From an uncultured Rickettsiales bacterium (GTDB taxonomy: Bacteria; Pseudomonadota; Alphaproteobacteria; Rickettsiales; UBA1997), in NCBI GenBank assembly GCA_944392135.1, contig CALXVQ010000001.1:100931-164930 (forward strand): a stretch of 64,000 nt of DNA. Reading direction: 5' to 3'. The notes beneath the pieces are model-generated. The model was not told the origin of the DNA. It was given only the letters and a program-made list of their open reading frames with translations, and made no database searches. This document shows, piece after piece, positions 15,344 to 54,175 of this stretch (position 1 is the first letter of the stretch; every line of letters begins with the position of its first letter). The translations under genes were made by a program, and so were the position numbers.

Positions 15344-15846
15344 GATTGCCACAAAATTTTGTTTGACTGTCATAATGCTCCATACCAAGATTGCCACGAA
15401 CCTTCGGTTCTCGCAATGACGAGTTTTGTTTGCCACAATAGTACCTTATCCCGAGATTGCCACAGGCCTTCGGCTTTCTCAATGACAGCACTTTTTCGTC
15501 ATTGCGAGGAGTGAAACGACGAAGCAATCCACAACCACTAACAACAAACACAAAAGCAGAAAAGAAAAAGAATTCCATGAATGAATAATTGTACCCCATA
15601 CTGAGATTGCCACGAACCTTCGGTTCTCGCAATGACAAACCAAGAATAATAAGATTATCACTACTTCTACAAAGTCTTGTAATGACAGTGTGGGTTGGGT
15701 GTGGTGGTTGGCATACCGAGATTGCCACAGCTTTTTCAAAGCCTTGCAATGACAAGTCCCATAATCGCAATAATAGCTTTATAATTTGCAATGACAGTGT
15801 GTGGGTACTGTCATTACAAGTGAAGCGAAGCAATCCACAACCACTA
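15344..15846. repeat. Cluster of hairpin (MITE/RPE-like) repeat units, composite element 1
   Basis: There are 5 type-A units, gagattgccac-[variable hairpin]-cgcaatgac (for example 15389-15420 and 15605-15636, which are identical). Type-B ends are gtcattgcgag...gaagcaatccacaaccac (15498-15538) and atgacagt...actgtcattacaagtgaagcgaagcaatccacaaccact (15786-15846). Confidence 0.85.
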
Positions 15847-16005
15847 CTTCTTTATTTATTTATAGAAAAATAAAAGAATTCACCAATAGAATAATTAATT
15901 ATACAAATACAATAATAATACAAAACAGAAAATAAAAAGAAATAAACAATAATAAAATAAGTAATAATATTAATAATGGTATAATAAATATATAATAATA
16001 AATCA

Positions 16006-48933: not shown

Positions 48934-50421
48934 TTATTTAACATTTTTTGTTTCAATTCTAAGGCTTTTGCCTAAACAATAAAATATTTCTTCCTTAGAA
49001 TAATTTGTATTTTCTTCAAAAAGTTCAACTGGATAATCTTTATTAAAAATAATAACTTTATTTTCAATGTCAATATTATTATAATCATCATCAGTTAATT
49101 TTACAACAATTTGATCCATTGAAATTTTACCATATATTTGACATTTTGTATATTCGCCATCATTTTTTTGAATAAATACATAACATTTCTTTTTGCTAAC
49201 TATTGAAGATAAACCATCTAAATAACCACCAAAGAATGTAGCAAGCTTATCTCCTTTTTTTACAGAAACTAAACCATCATAGCCAACAATACCATCTTCA
49301 TCAACAATTCTTTTTTCTGTAATTTGTGAATAAAATGCTTTATATTTATTTTCAGCATTTTTTTCATAAACAGCTTTATATTTTGATTCACTAATCATTT
49401 CTTTATTTCTAGGTAAATTGCAAACAAAATTTTCTGGATCTAAATAACAATTTTCTAAAAATCTTCCAATAGATTCCATAGAAGCTATTTCTAAATTATC
49501 CAAAAAAGTTTTTAAACTTAAAGATTCACCTAAAACAACAACTTCTTTGTCTATTAAGGTTTTATCTTGTGTATCTAATATAATTTTATCATTTTGTACT
49601 AATTTAATAAATATTTTTACACCATTATATAATACATAACAATCACCATTTCCATATTGACTAAACACGCCATTATTAATACCAAATGGTAAATATAAAT
49701 TAGTACCATCAGTTCTAATATAAGATTTTATGGATATCACATCTTTAAAACCATCAAAATAACCATATAATATTTTTCCTGGACGACAAGTATTACAAAA
49801 ATCAGACAAATCAAAATTTACTATACTATCACTAGCTTCTATACCTTTTAAAATTTCTTTTTCAGGAAAATACTTTGCAACTTTTCTAAAATTATTTATT
49901 TGTCTTTCATTAGCTTCGTGTTGCACATTATCAGCACATGCAAGATGACTCATAATCATTAAAACATTAAAATCATTTTCATCTATATATTTTCTAACTT
50001 TTGCTGTGTCAGAAACTTCAAAACCATTTCTATTTAAACCCGTATTAAATTGTAAAACAATATCTTTAATATTAGCATTTTTTGATAATTCTAACTGCCT
50101 AAAATCATTAATAACTGGTGTTAGTGAATATTTTTTAAATATTTCTTCATCGCCTTTAAATAAGCTATTTAAAACAAAAATTCTCTCCAATTCTGGAAAC
50201 ATTTTTCTAAGTTCAATACCTTCTTTTAATGCAAATACAAAAAATTTTTTTTGTGGTTCTTTGATTGATAATAGTGTTTTAACAACATTATAAACACCTA
50301 CATTATATGCATTAGCTTTAACAACAGGAATAACATTATCACCTTGTCCTGTGATTTCTCTAACTTTTTCAAAATTATATATTAAGTTATCTAAATTTAT
50401 TTCTATTTTTGCTTTTTTCAT
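48934..50421 (-). CDS. alr: Alanine racemase with ~130-aa internal extra segment
   Basis: The PLP-Lys motif VVKANAYNVG and N-terminal barrel are present. The C-terminal beta-domain (IVGYDG...GGYLDGL...GKISMDQIVV) sits at aa ~365-495, preceded by a degenerate second copy of the same domain. Confidence 0.8.
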   Translation of the reverse strand: MKKAKIEINLDNLIYNFEKVREITGQGDNVIPVVKANAYNVGVYNVVKTLLSIKEPQKKFFVFALKEGIELRKMFPELERIFVLNSLFKGDEEIFKKYSLTPVINDFRQLELSKNANIKDIVLQFNTGLNRNGFEVSDTAKVRKYIDENDFNVLMIMSHLACADNVQHEANERQINNFRKVAKYFPEKEILKGIEASDSIVNFDLSDFCNTCRPGKILYGYFDGFKDVISIKSYIRTDGTNLYLPFGINNGVFSQYGNGDCYVLYNGVKIFIKLVQNDKIILDTQDKTLIDKEVVVLGESLSLKTFLDNLEIASMESIGRFLENCYLDPENFVCNLPRNKEMISESKYKAVYEKNAENKYKAFYSQITEKRIVDEDGIVGYDGLVSVKKGDKLATFFGGYLDGLSSIVSKKKCYVFIQKNDGEYTKCQIYGKISMDQIVVKLTDDDYNNIDIENKVIIFNKDYPVELFEENTNYSKEEIFYCLGKSLRIETKNVK

Positions 50422-50607
50422 TTGACAATATATTTAACCTCAACAATTTAGTATTATTATACCAATTTTATTATTTTCAAGAAAATTATGATAAGTATTT
50501 TTTTTTACAAAATATCATTTATTCATTAATATAAAATATAACAAGAAATATTTTTATATATATTACAAAAATAAGTATCCTAAATGCTAAAAAATTTGAA
50601 AAATAAA

Positions 50608-50684
50608 TGGCGCGAGTGAAGGGACTTGAACCCTCGGCCTTCTGCGTGACAGGCAGACGCTCTAACCAGCTGAGCTACACCCGC
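50608..50684 (-). tRNA. tRNA-Asp (GUC), CCA encoded
   Basis: The reverse complement GCGGGTGTAGCTCAGCTGGTTAGAGCGTCTGCCTGTCACGCAGAAGGCCGAGGGTTCAAGTCCCTTCACTCGCGCCA folds as a cloverleaf. The anticodon loop is CTGTCAC. Confidence 0.92.
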
Positions 50685-50689
50685 ATACA

Positions 50690-50766
50690 TGGTGGGTGCT
50701 ATAGGATTCGAACCTATGACCCCCTGCTTGTAAGGCAGATGCTCTAACCATCTGAGCTAAGCACCC
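50690..50766 (-). tRNA. tRNA-Val (UAC), CCA encoded
   Basis: The reverse complement is GGGTGCTTAGCTCAGATGGTTAGAGCATCTGCCTTACAAGCAGGGGGTCATAGGTTCGAATCCTATAGCACCCACCA. The anticodon loop is CTTACAA. Confidence 0.92.
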
Positions 50767-50977
50767 ATGTACAAGTAAATATATTATTGTACACTTTTTT
50801 AAAAATCAAGAAAAAAATAAATTTTATATAAAATGTCATTTATATATTAATAATTATGGTTTTGTTGAATAAATTAGAATAAAAAATATAAAAATATAAA
50901 ATAAAATTTTAAAAATAATTGCAATTAAATATATTAATTTTATATTTACATAATGTATAGAATAATTTTAAAATAAT

Positions 50978-53900
50978 ATGGCACAGGTTGAAAATTATAA
51001 CCATAAATTAGTTGAAAAGAAATGGCAAAAATTTTGGGATAAAAATAATACATTTTATTTCGATCCTAATGATAAAAAAGAAAAATTTTATATGCTTCCT
51101 ATGTTTTTATATCCTTCTGGTGAAATGCATTTAGGACATTTAAGAAATTTTTCTATTAGTGATGTAATAGCTAGATTTAAAAGACTTCAAGGTTATAATG
51201 TTCTTCATCCAACTGGTGCTGATGCTTTTGGACTTCCTGCTGAAAATGCTGCAATCAAAAGACATATACACCCTAGTGAATGGACTTATAAAAATTTAGA
51301 AAAAATTATGAATTCCATGTATGCTTGTGGCTTGTCTTTTGACAAAAGTAGAGTTTTTGCCACTTGCGACCCTGAATATTATGGTTTTCAACAAAAAATA
51401 TTTATAGATTTATACAAACATGGTTTGGCTTTTCAAAAAGAAAGTTATGTAAATTGGGATCCTGTGGATCAAACTGTTTTGGCAAATGAACAAGTTATTG
51501 ATGGTAGAGGTTGGAGAAGTGATGCCTTAGTTGAAAAGAAAAAATTGAAACAATGGTTCTTAAAAATCACAGATTATGCTGATAAATTATTAGAAAGTAT
51601 TAAAAATGGCGATTTGGCTGGCTGGCCTGAAAAAGTTAGATTAATGCAAGAAAATTGGATTGGCAAAAGTCAAGGAGCTATACTTCGTTTTTATATAGAT
51701 AAAAATGATACTCTTCCTGCCTCCCTTTGTAATGATGAAAGTTGCAAAAATAATTATCTCCATGCCTCCCTTTGTAAGGGGGGAAGTTGCGAAAATAATT
51801 CTCTCCATGCCTCCCTTTGTAAGGGGGGAAGTTGCGAAGCAACAGGGGGGTTGAGCTTAAAAAAATATATTCCATATAATAAAGATTTAGTTAAAAAAGC
51901 CAAAGAACTCAGAAAAAATCAAACACCATTAGAAAAAAAATTCTGGTATGATGTTCTATATAATAAAAGTTTTAAAAATTTAAAATGGACGAGACAAAAA
52001 CCAATAGATAATTATATTGTAGATTTTTTCTGTGATGAACTTATGTTAGCTATTGAACTTGATGGAGATACTCATTCAAATCAAGTAAAATATGATATAG
52101 AAAGAACAAATAATTTAAATAAATTGGGTATTGAAGTAATTAGATATAATAACAAAGATATATATAACAATATTGAAGGAGTTTATTTGGATTTGGAAGA
52201 AAAAGTAAATAAAAGAAAAATAGACTTAAATTCTCAACCCCCCGCTGACTTCGTCAGCACCCCCCTTACAAAGGGAGGCAAGAGTGTGGCTGATTTTGCC
52301 AACACAACTCCTACAAATGGAGACAATAGTGGACTTGATTTTATAGAAGTTTATACAACTAGACCTGATACATTATATGGAGCAAGTTTTATTGGTATTT
52401 CTGCTAATCATCCATTGGCCGAAGAACTTGCAAAAACTAATAAAGATATAGCAAAATTTATTGAAGAATGCAAAACAACTCCAATAGATGAAGAAAGTTT
52501 AGAAACTATGGAGAAAAAAGGTATTGATACAGGTATTTTTGTAGAGCATCCATTTGATAAAAATTGGAAACTTCCTGTATGGATTGCAAACTTTATTTTG
52601 ATGGACTATGGAACAGGGGCTATTTTTGCTTGTCCGGCACACGATCAAAGAGATTATGAATTTGCTAAAAAATATAACTTGCCGATTAAAGTTGTTGTTA
52701 GCCCCGATGGAAAAGATTTTGAATTAAATAATGAAGCATATGAAGAAGAAGGTATTGCTATTAATTCTAATTTCTTAAATGGACTTACTACAAAAGAAGC
52801 TAAACAAAAAGCTATTGAAAAAATTGAAGAAATGGGAATTGGTAAAGCAAAAACTAATTATAGATTGAGAGATTGGGGAGTTTCTAGACAAAGATATTGG
52901 GGCTGTCCTATTCCTATGGTATATTGTGAAGATTGTGGTGTAGTGCCAGAAAAAGAAGAAAACTTGCCAATTAAATTGCCAGAAGATGTTGTATTTGATG
53001 GTAAAGGAAACCCATTGGCTAACCACCCAACATGGAAATATACAACTTGTCCTAAATGTGGTAAACCAGCTATTAGAGAAACTGATACTATGGATACATT
53101 TGTTGATTCTTCATGGTATTTTATGAGATTTGTTGATTTAGATAAAAACAACCCAATTAATAAAGATTTATGTAATAAAATTCTCCCAATAGATCAATAT
53201 GTTGGTGGTATAGAACATGCTACAATGCATTTAATGTATTCAAGATTTTTTACAAAAGCATTAGCTGACATAGGGTATTTTGATAAATCAATTAAAGAAC
53301 CGGCAAAAAGATTATTTAATCAAGGTATGGTATGTCATAAAGCTTACAGAAATAAGAAAAAAGAATGGTGTTACCCTTGGAATGTTAAAGAAGAAAATGG
53401 AAAATATTTTGATATAAATACAGGTGAAGAATTGACTTGTGAAGGTGTTATCAAAATGAGTAAATCAAAATGCAATGTCGTTGACATTAATACAATTATT
53501 GAAGATTATGGAGCAGATGCTGCGAGATTATTTGTATTATCTGACACACCTGCTGATAAAGATTTTGAATGGACGACAGAAGGCATTGAAGGTGCTTGGA
53601 AATATATAAATAGAGTATGGAAATTAGGGGCAACTTTTGCAGAAGAAAATGATTTAGATAAATTAAAAAATATTAAAGTTAATAAAACTAATGCTTTATT
53701 AATTGAAAATCATAAAGCCGTAAAAGCTGTTAGTTCTTTCCTTGAAAATTTAGAATTTAATAAAGCTATTGCTAGATTGAGAGAATTTTCTAATGCTATT
53801 GAAAAATTTGCTCCACAAGATGATGAAGATAAAGTTATTAAATATCAATGTATTGTGAATTTAATAAAAATGCTTGCTCCATTTACTCCACATCTTTGTG

Positions 53901-54175
53901 AAGAATTAAATTCTTTATTAAAACAAACTCCTACACTTGATATTGCTTCGTGGCCTACATATGATGAAAAATTGACTATTGATACAGAAATTACAATAGC
54001 TATTCAAGTTAATGGAAAATTAAGAGGTGATATAAAAGTTGAAAAAGATTTAGATAGAACAAAAGTTGAAGAATTAGCTAAAAATCAAGAAAATGTTAAA
54101 AAACATCTTGAAGGAAAAGAAATCAAAAAAGTTATAGTTGTTCCTAATAAATTAGTTAACTTTGTTGTAGCTTAA
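50978..54175 (+). CDS. leuS: Leucyl-tRNA synthetase carrying an in-frame ~207-codon insertion
   Basis: HLGH (HIGH) and KMSKS motifs and the CP1 editing motif [12 protein letters not shown] are present, with full collinearity to bacterial LeuRS apart from aa ~246-452. Confidence 0.95.
   Translation: [1065 protein letters not shown]
51712..52333 (+). mobile_element. DUF559 (Vsr-like endonuclease) cassette flanked by structured inverted repeats, in-frame within leuS
   Basis: The 47-nt inverted repeats at 51809-51855 and 52233-52279 share identical arms. The left arm is tandemly triplicated (45-bp period from 51712). The core encodes [26 protein letters not shown]...[21 protein letters not shown]...[11 protein letters not shown]. 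Confidence 0.75.

Follow-up and report, generated by a model that had tools for sequence, protein, structure and literature searches.

Can a complete nuclease domain, bracketed by inverted repeats of its own, reside unspliced within an essential gene? This question is raised by leuS, the gene for leucyl-tRNA synthetase (LeuRS), in a 64,000-nt stretch of DNA from an uncultured Rickettsiales bacterium (contig CALXVQ010000001.1, positions 100,931 to 164,930, forward strand). We refer to this whole stretch as the window. It is AT-rich (GC 24.6%) and its nearest genomes are metagenome-assembled genomes (MAGs) of uncultured Rickettsiales; all sequence data considered here are metagenomic. We favor, with a probability of roughly 0.7, the explanation that the insert within leuS is a selfish, non-spliced cassette of a DUF559 nuclease and hairpin repeats that is genuinely inserted in this essential gene and translated through.

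The features on which the analysis depends are as follows:

50978 to 54175, plus strand: leuS open reading frame (ORF) including the insert, 1065 aa (ORF list, TIGR00396, HIGH and KMSKS motifs)
51713 to 52333, plus strand: in-frame insert, codons 246-452, 621 nt, measured against LeuRS proteins without filler at the site
51719 to 51855, plus strand: left repeat array, with 45-nt units at 51719 (decayed), 51764, and 51809, the last being the full 47-nt module 51809-51855
51809 to 51828, plus strand: hairpin H1 of the left module, stem CCTCCCTT / AAGGGGGG (DNA fold)
51831 to 51843, plus strand: hairpin H2 of the left module, mini-hairpin gttgc-GAA-gcaac (DNA fold)
51866 to 52231, plus strand: DUF559 nuclease domain (Vsr superfamily, PD-(D/E)xK), LeuRS residues 297-418
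52022 to 52075, plus strand: predicted active-site residues D349 (52022-52024), E360 (52055-52057), D362 (52061-52063), and H366 (52073-52075)
52233 to 52279, minus strand: right 47-nt module, an inverted copy of 51809-51855, with H2 gctgac-TTC-gtcagc at 52244-52258
52244 to 52333, plus strand: right repeat array of two 45-nt units, 52244-52288 and 52289-52333 (decayed)

The nuclease domain and its repeat arrays

The window LeuRS matches the bacterial leuS model TIGR00396 at 1027 bits, with the match split into two stretches, and its HIGH (residue 51) and KMSKS (residue 826) motifs are intact. Between the window lineage and a related locus from bin57 (L012), the host parts of the protein show a ratio of nonsynonymous to synonymous divergence (dN/dS) of 0.05-0.09 at a synonymous divergence (dS) of 0.8-1.6. 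Without the insert, LeuRS would be 858 aa long, compared with 855 aa in the closest relative that has no filler at the site (P0126). The junctions fall between KNDT and LPAS and between DNSG and LDFI. A previous examination of the letters and ORFs of the window, hereafter the sequence-only reading, had set the insert at 51712-52333; its length of 621 nt and its end stand, while its start was one base out of frame and 51713 is correct. The 93 flank codons of the insert would be stop-free by chance with P ~0.005 given the local composition and 1.6e-4 given that of the genome, in agreement with the earlier argument that the open frame is not accidental, and the two other forward frames of the insert contain 15 and 32 stops.

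The insert carries a full-length DUF559 domain, as had been proposed. Pfam PF04480 (DUF559) matches LeuRS residues 304-408 at 103.6 bits (E 6.9e-30; cut-off 20.6), covering positions 3-106 of the 109 in the model. In an alignment of 104 homologues, residues D349, E360, D362, G363, and H366, which form the pattern D ... E-x-D-G-x-x-H, are invariant or near-invariant columns; D349, E360, D362, and H366 correspond to alignment columns D104, E115, D117, and H121, and membership of the family suggests that these four residues are catalytic. Profile comparison with the PDB returned the DUF559 protein 3hrl (E 5e-29) and the homing endonuclease I-Bth0305I (3r3p; E 2e-3). The same order was obtained with Foldseek, which matched 3hrl at a TM score of 0.82 and 3r3p at 0.69.

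An AlphaFold model of the insert, built with the 104 homologues, predicts residues ~51-175 with a predicted local distance difference test (pLDDT) score above 90 and the repeat-encoded residues 1-47 and 178-207 as disordered. In the full-length model, the LeuRS body is confident and unperturbed, and the DUF559 domain (residues 297-418) is folded on two tethers, residues 245-296 and 419-452, that have pLDDT below 50. These tethers sit between strands 230-240 and 455-460, which mark the entry to the CP1 editing domain. Both this model and the comparison of LeuRS proteins thus place the insert in frame at the linker into CP1, where the sequence-only reading had located it. That reading had asked whether the insert is an autonomous domain at the CP1 hinge, and the prediction is of such a domain, on disordered linkers. 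The DUF559 core has a dN/dS of 0.11 at a dS of 0.90 (window lineage versus L012). These values indicate that the nuclease domain is under purifying selection, and hence that it has been kept as a protein for approximately as long as the lineages have diverged.

Several other identities for the domain or the insert were considered and rejected. The domain is not a Vsr very-short-patch repair endonuclease proper, since no Vsr family is among the Pfam or NCBIfam matches and the fold match to Vsr itself (1vsr) is weak (Foldseek E 0.2); its sole NCBIfam match is PRK09767 (DUF559) at 68 bits, below the cut-off of 218. An intein is excluded by the lack of any Hint or intein match in Pfam and by junctions (T/L and G/L) that are without the Cys/Ser/Thr and His-Asn signature, as the sequence-only reading had also concluded. 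Against an intron or known structured RNA, scanning positions 51400-52700 with Rfam (E of 1 or less) yielded a single lncRNA match, at chance level. A defense gene is not supported either, with PADLOC returning only a marginal match to a methyl-directed type II restriction enzyme (E 9e-4). The idea that a T:G wobble in the H1 stem serves as a Vsr-type target was dropped, because the generic module described below has perfect stems.

The repeats are similarly well defined. The left 47-nt module (51809-51855) reads GCCTCCCTTTGTAAGGGGGG-AAGTTGCGAAGCAACA-GGGGGGTTGAG; the right module, read as the reverse complement of 52233-52279, has identical arms and the center TGCTGACGAAGTCAGC. A module consists of H1 (GCCTCCC-TTTGTAA-GGGGGG), the H2 mini-hairpin with its GAA loop, and the G-run GGGGGGTTGAG. 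On both sides the H2 centers fold as GAA-triloop hairpins (gttgc/gcaac left, gctgac/gtcagc right), and compensated variants such as gcgac-GAA-gtcgc are found in other copies in a related genome. The 47-nt inverted repeats are exactly as previously described, and the folds and compensated variants bear out the claim that the center keeps its structure rather than its sequence. The boundaries were drawn differently: the insert is not delimited by single inverted repeats, since each module forms the inner end of a tandem array built of 45-nt (15-codon) units. Three such units make up the left array and two the right, and the outermost ones have decayed toward AT. The left array is translated as repeats of ASLC(ND/KG)..SC.NN.LH, and the right array has two to four copies in other alleles. 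The 20-mer of H1 occurs three times in the window, always within leuS, compared with an expectation of zero from shuffles; no further module copies were detected in the 64 kb, even with four mismatches allowed. When the insert is folded as RNA, the two repeat arrays pair (-168 kcal/mol, z = -7).

Occupied and empty leuS alleles in related Rickettsiales

The exact H1 20-mer is also present in related genomes and, used as a probe, led to three Rickettsiales MAGs. Each of them carries the cassette at the same leuS site and in frame, at loci L003 (bin29), L005 (bin249), and L012 (bin57). Their arrays comprise three left and two right units in L003 and two left and four right units in L005, whereas L012 is diverged with longer flanks. 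The inserts measure 621 nt in the window and in L003, 666 nt in L005, and 720 nt in L012, and all are open across four independent assemblies. Protein-based ascertainment favors intact ORFs; these four alleles were ascertained by DNA and all are in frame.

Occupied and empty alleles coexist among close relatives. A search with the spliced 858-aa LeuRS recovered an occupied allele that represents 45 member sequences (P0123), and there are LeuRS proteins without the nuclease that are 97% identical (P0121, P0122, P0124, and P0125). The loci of the empty alleles are syntenic, with alr-argS upstream and genes for an O-methyltransferase and an adenosine deaminase downstream. The earlier question of whether orthologues have an empty site is therefore answered by syntenic, ~97% identical alleles that lack the nuclease. 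One of these loci (L016) retains a single hairpin at the site, in which the left end of the left array is fused to the right end of the right array; relative to the window, this allele is 588 nt (196 codons) shorter, encodes 869 aa, and is joined at an AAGGG microhomology. The bin57 lineage shows a corresponding pair, in which L102 lacks 585 nt that are present in L012 and is joined at TCCATT. When six alleles were compared over the host gene, their distances proved star-like (1.5-3.7%) and not sorted by site state. For the window, L003, and L005, the cassette core has 16 differences in 963 nt, compared with 202 in 6786 nt of host sequence.

Two further loci, L017 and L018, have a short (gaaaatt)n filler at the site. 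Such heptamer tracts at the hinge were seen in L017 (10720-10770), L018, P0130, P0139, P0141, and P0148. They also come after the 47-nt module at intergenic sites of bin29, where the two repeats seem to co-travel.

Comparison of LeuRS proteins from relatives revealed two insertion sites: site A, the hinge that is occupied in the window, and site B inside CP1, between KYNLPIK.VV and EEGIAINS.FLNGL. Site B is empty in the window (~52700-52760, KVVVSPDGKDFELNNEAYEEEG). Depending on lineage, both sites hold repeat-only fillers, DUF559 cassettes, or ASCH, LPD3, or transglutaminase-like domains, and the DUF559 cassettes fall into two subfamilies, each with its own hairpin type. The independent arrival of unrelated inserts at the same sites suggests that surviving insertions are picked by structural tolerance rather than by sequence targeting.

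Individual examples illustrate this range. Site-B inserts in P0128, P0131, P0134, P0144, P0148, P0179, P0181, and P0229 include fillers and DUF559, LPD3, ASCH-like, and transglutaminase-like domains. An ASCH domain occupies the exact hinge site of DUF559 in P0127, P0175, P0177, P0185, P0188, P0194, P0210, and P0214, and these hinge-site domains of other Rickettsiales are apparently without flanking hairpin repeats. Besides DUF559, nested NUDIX, GNAT, methyltransferase, and DUF218 domains were observed in P0385, P0388, and P0277 (iPGM-like and LeuRS proteins), and some lineages seem to accumulate in-frame domain insertions.

DUF559 cassettes across bacteria

Species-representative genomes of Bacteroidota, Nitrospirota, Planctomycetota, Acidobacteriota, Cloacimonadota, and further phyla supplied 66 DUF559 loci for a survey of flanking repeats. 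At 73% of these loci the two flanks are linked by an inverted repeat (score of 14 or more), compared with 0.8% of 251 position-shifted controls. The repeats share a common grammar, in which a CCCCTC-TTGG-GAGGGG hairpin is followed by an optional GNA mini-hairpin and then by GGGGTGGG. The window module is an AT-genome version of this grammar. Translated hairpins also occur on both sides of free-standing DUF559 homologues, e.g., ...PPDKGGKGG-YIPYNK... and ...PPKSPLSGGL. We also considered whether free-standing copies mostly have a frame that stays open across both repeats; this holds in only 5/44 and was rejected, and read-through is therefore not a general design.

The generic module was found at no fewer than 120 loci across genomes. 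Among the 141 module matches listed, 21 have a DUF559 ORF no more than 600 nt away, and for 116 the locus (up to 8 kb) contains no DUF559. The exact Rickettsiales module is located at nine intergenic places of bin29, in addition to its in-frame position in leuS. Since it is dispersed and, among the matches listed, mostly solo, the module is a repetitive extragenic palindromic (REP)-like repeat, by which the nuclease gene is typically bracketed. The sequence-only reading had raised the possibility of other repeat-plus-DUF559 units; no DUF559 copies were found beyond leuS in the three related MAGs, and homologous cassettes are present in other bacteria.

In an exhaustive HMMER search, 18,070 cluster representatives matched with an E of 1e-3 or less. 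Among the best 150 of these, at least 20 are long proteins in which DUF559 is internal, with Pfam host domains on both sides and hairpin-coded flanks in each case. The hosts are RecG (three), RecJ, AlaRS, class I aminoacyl-tRNA synthetases (three), a further LeuRS protein that also contains NUDIX, MiaA, a MiaB-like radical-SAM enzyme, a TrmA-like methyltransferase, a Mur ligase, iPGM, type I S subunits, Eco57I/MmeI-type enzymes, and type ISP enzymes. In a Bacteroidia MAG (L039, 565-5133), the cassette interrupts MetH in frame and separates its B12-binding_2 cap from its B12-binding domain.

Other loci gave more particular observations. On a cyanobacterium-like contig (L099, 3850-4800), a type III mod methyltransferase gene contains a DUF559 cassette whose right junction keeps the frame and whose left junction is off by one base within the hairpin G-run; this offset could reflect a sequencing error or a phase-variable tract that is prone to slippage. 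The G-run of the left module of a free-standing acidobacteriotal copy (L045, 2940-3010) is positioned ~7-10 nt upstream of the DUF559 ATG, resembling a Shine-Dalgarno sequence, and this module may also control translation of the nuclease. We rejected L045 and L046 as a case of recent duplicative transposition in favor of redundancy or a large duplication, because the whole 6.3-kb loci are 99.95% identical.

Explanations for the insert

Under the explanation that we favor, the cassette would comprise a Vsr-superfamily PD-(D/E)xK nuclease ORF between inverted, structured palindromic modules, each ordered as a C-run/G-run hairpin, a GNA mini-hairpin, and a further G-run, and would occupy a surface linker that is structurally permissive, namely the strand that leads into the CP1 editing domain. 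Its GC-rich repeats would be read as stop-free, disordered linkers rich in Gly, Ser, Pro, and Cys while the nuclease folds autonomously; LeuRS would keep working, such that there is no need to splice out the insert. The need to keep leuS in frame would restrict changes in repeat number to steps of 45 nt (15 codons). The cassette has resided at this site for long (dS about 0.9 between lineages) and appears to have been repeatedly lost through microhomology deletion between the outermost hairpins, leaving one solo hairpin; this recurrent loss would explain why occupied and empty alleles coexist. The nuclease is presumably kept intact by acting on the hairpin module. It may cut module-bearing or solo-hairpin sites, the repair of which would copy the cassette in by homing-like gene conversion, and it may also mobilize dispersed solo modules in trans, as has been proposed for the REP-associated tyrosine transposases (RAYTs) and REP elements. 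That the nuclease has long stayed intact while empty alleles persist beside it is consistent with the cycle of gain, decay, and loss in homing that was reportedly set out by Goddard and Burt in 1999.

Several points weigh against this explanation. Each of the three related MAGs has one copy of the cassette, located in leuS and nowhere else, and the dS of the cassette is close to that of the host; both features are compatible with vertical inheritance and loss alone, without present mobility. The hint of recent exchange that comes from the lower divergence of the cassette core among the window, L003, and L005 is weak. The solo-hairpin alleles are equally explicable as deletion products or as targets. 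In representative genomes, two of the 44 repeat-flanked loci are nested in long ORFs and most copies are free-standing. No second leuS for bin29 was found among the best matches, which is a weak check. Finally, that the full-length 1065-aa protein is made is suggested by conservation, and the activity of the nuclease, its cleavage site, and the transfer of the cassette are steps that we infer.

Alternatively, the nuclease would not be mobile but a vertically inherited housekeeping enzyme that, as proposed for a RAYT, makes or maintains the dispersed modules, its position in leuS being a fixed accident. Such an enzyme would be expected to be single-copy, as it is in the Rickettsiales MAGs, where the module occupies nine or more intergenic bin29 sites, and to diverge at a dS similar to that of the host. 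The mostly solo occurrence of generic modules (116/141 among the matches listed) and the inverted modules flanking the gene, as in a REPtron (PMC3733652), are also in keeping with it. We nevertheless regard this as unlikely. There is no solo module in the window's 64 kb, close homologues reside within more than 15 unrelated host genes, the same LeuRS site is taken by different DUF559 subfamilies with different hairpins, and occupied and empty alleles exist side by side at ~97% host identity. The many unrelated hosts and the different subfamilies at one LeuRS site instead point to repeated insertion of the whole cassette.

The strong purifying selection and long residence would likewise be expected of a domesticated domain that gives LeuRS an activity of benefit to the host, e.g., nucleic-acid binding or cleavage tied to translation or stress. 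Consistent with this, ASCH, LPD3, transglutaminase-like, and NUDIX domains at the same LeuRS sites in relatives indicate that accessory domains are tolerated and perhaps exploited. However, near-identical strains are without the nuclease and the same cassette, with its repeats, is found in functionally unrelated proteins; moreover, long disordered linkers together with inverted repeats in the DNA mark an element rather than an integrated domain. Domestication is thus improbable.

More improbable still is removal of the insert before the mature protein forms, whether at the RNA level via the repeat stem or by unrecognized protein splicing. The pairing of the repeat arrays in the RNA fold of the whole insert (z = -7) would provide such a stem. 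Yet every allele is in frame and stop-free despite differing lengths, and the repeats vary by 15 codons, neither of which RNA excision would require; the Rfam and Pfam searches and the junction residues furthermore gave no intron or other RNA family and no Hint domain or intein signature. A pseudogene or assembly chimera has a negligible probability, since no evidence supporting it was found in these metagenomic data, the same structure recurs in independent assemblies from different projects, the ORF and catalytic motifs are intact, the host parts have a dN/dS of about 0.04-0.10, and no second leuS for bin29 is among the best matches.

The selfish, translated cassette that we favor resembles several known systems without coinciding with any. 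Rickettsia palindromic elements (RPEs) were reportedly described by Ogata et al. in 2000. Like RPEs and intragenic REPs (PMC3733652), the repeats here are palindromic, in frame in housekeeping genes of Rickettsiales, read as extra surface peptides, and dispersed elsewhere, and LeuRS relatives with repeat-only fillers at the same sites are also RPE-like. The RPE-like behavior suggested by the sequence-only reading accordingly holds, with the palindrome scattered between genes in bin29 and also present in frame within leuS, and with no solo copies in the 64-kb window. RPEs and REPs differ in that they span 20-150 bp and carry no protein domain, whereas here the repeats bracket a complete nuclease that is under selection. 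In addition, the same cassette extends far outside Rickettsiales, the likeness to RPEs being judged on arrangement.

In REPtron (REPIN-RAYT) systems, an enzyme gene that is often single-copy is flanked by inverted hairpin repeats that are also dispersed solo (PMC3733652). The DUF559 gene is likewise flanked by inverted copies of a dispersed hairpin repeat. In contrast, its enzyme is a PD-(D/E)xK nuclease rather than an IS200/IS605-type HUH tyrosine transposase, the window module is without a GTAG or CGTC tag, and the whole cassette is nested in frame inside genes. The cassette works like a REPtron but is not a member of that group.

Vsr-like (EDxHD) homing endonucleases such as I-Bth0305I, including those of 'fractured genes', are found in group I introns, between split-intein halves, or where a gene is broken in two (PMC3239194, PMC2677866). 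They share with the cassette a nuclease superfamily, conserved sites in housekeeping genes, and presence/absence polymorphism, and occupied and empty alleles indeed occur at one site of a conserved gene, leuS. However, there is no intron, intein, or fracture here, the nuclease is read through in the host protein, and flanking inverted hairpin modules have not been described for these enzymes. Inteins are similarly in-frame, selfish, nuclease-bearing insertions at conserved or permissive sites of essential genes, with occupied and empty alleles, but the window insert lacks a Hint domain, splice-junction residues, and predicted protein splicing. A further parallel is the ShiLan insertion, reported in 2025 in a phage methylase, a non-splicing and stop-free insertion with a homing-type endonuclease that is neither intein nor intron and is predicted to loop out (PMC11855218). 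Its HNH endonuclease is out of frame, in phages, and without hairpin inverted repeats (PMC11855218), whereas the DUF559 nuclease shares the frame of its host, resides in bacterial housekeeping genes, and is accompanied by a conserved repeat module.

The domain itself is a clear member of DUF559 (PF04480; E. coli YcjD-type NF007294; PDB 3hrl), within the Vsr/DUF559/DUF2726 clade of PD-(D/E)xK nucleases, by sequence, by its restriction-endonuclease-like alpha/beta fold, and by conserved residues, although known members of this family are annotated as free-standing and with function unassigned. No description of a repeat association or of nesting emerged from the literature searched on DUF559 in connection with Rickettsia, mobile elements, and inverted or palindromic repeats. 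The element is therefore best seen as a variant of known selfish in-frame or REP-associated elements that is apparently undescribed. The sequence-only reading had claimed novelty, and this stands as regards the literature searched; the insert is not unique, being present in related LeuRS proteins, at a second LeuRS site, and in many hosts. That reading had also held that an insertion widespread and already annotated in related LeuRS would count against it: the insertion is widespread, but the proteins bear only the annotation 'leucine--tRNA ligase', which does not recognize an element.

If the favored explanation is true, it would provide the first functional context for DUF559, a very large family, and would link it to a widespread palindromic repeat family without a known enzyme. 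It would further imply that unspliced nuclease domains can reside in permissive linkers of LeuRS, MetH, RecG, RecJ, MiaA, and AlaRS. This is relevant to genome annotation, in which such genes seem over-long or 'fused', bears on the origin of new domain architectures, and points protein engineering to insertion sites that are tolerated in nature. In these Rickettsiales, LeuRS offers a natural series at its hinge and CP1 sites, from empty through repeat-only to four or more different inserted domains. We propose more tentatively, at somewhat less than even odds, that DUF559 and the hairpin module constitute a previously unrecognized, phylum-spanning class of bacterial selfish element, in which the nuclease recognizes the module and the cassette spreads to module-bearing sites, with a sizeable minority residing in essential genes as translated, unspliced insertions that use the repeats as linkers. 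Such a class would represent an 'intein lifestyle without splicing' and would give a function to the orphan family DUF559 and a partner enzyme to widespread REP-like repeats.

Some observations concern the surroundings of leuS. A GC-rich patch upstream of the gene (50575-50800) was considered as a further repeat and rejected, as it corresponds to tRNA-Asp(GTC) and tRNA-Val(TAC), which lie back to back on the minus strand at window positions 50608-50766, just upstream of leuS. Beyond these, an alanine racemase ORF on the minus strand (48934-50421) encodes 495 aa, which is longer than usual for the enzyme. Elsewhere in the window, an intergenic cluster of a different hairpin repeat, of the gagattgccac...cgcaatgac type, is located at 15590-15850, and repeats of this family adjoin the 47-nt module in bin29 loci L004, L009, and L014.

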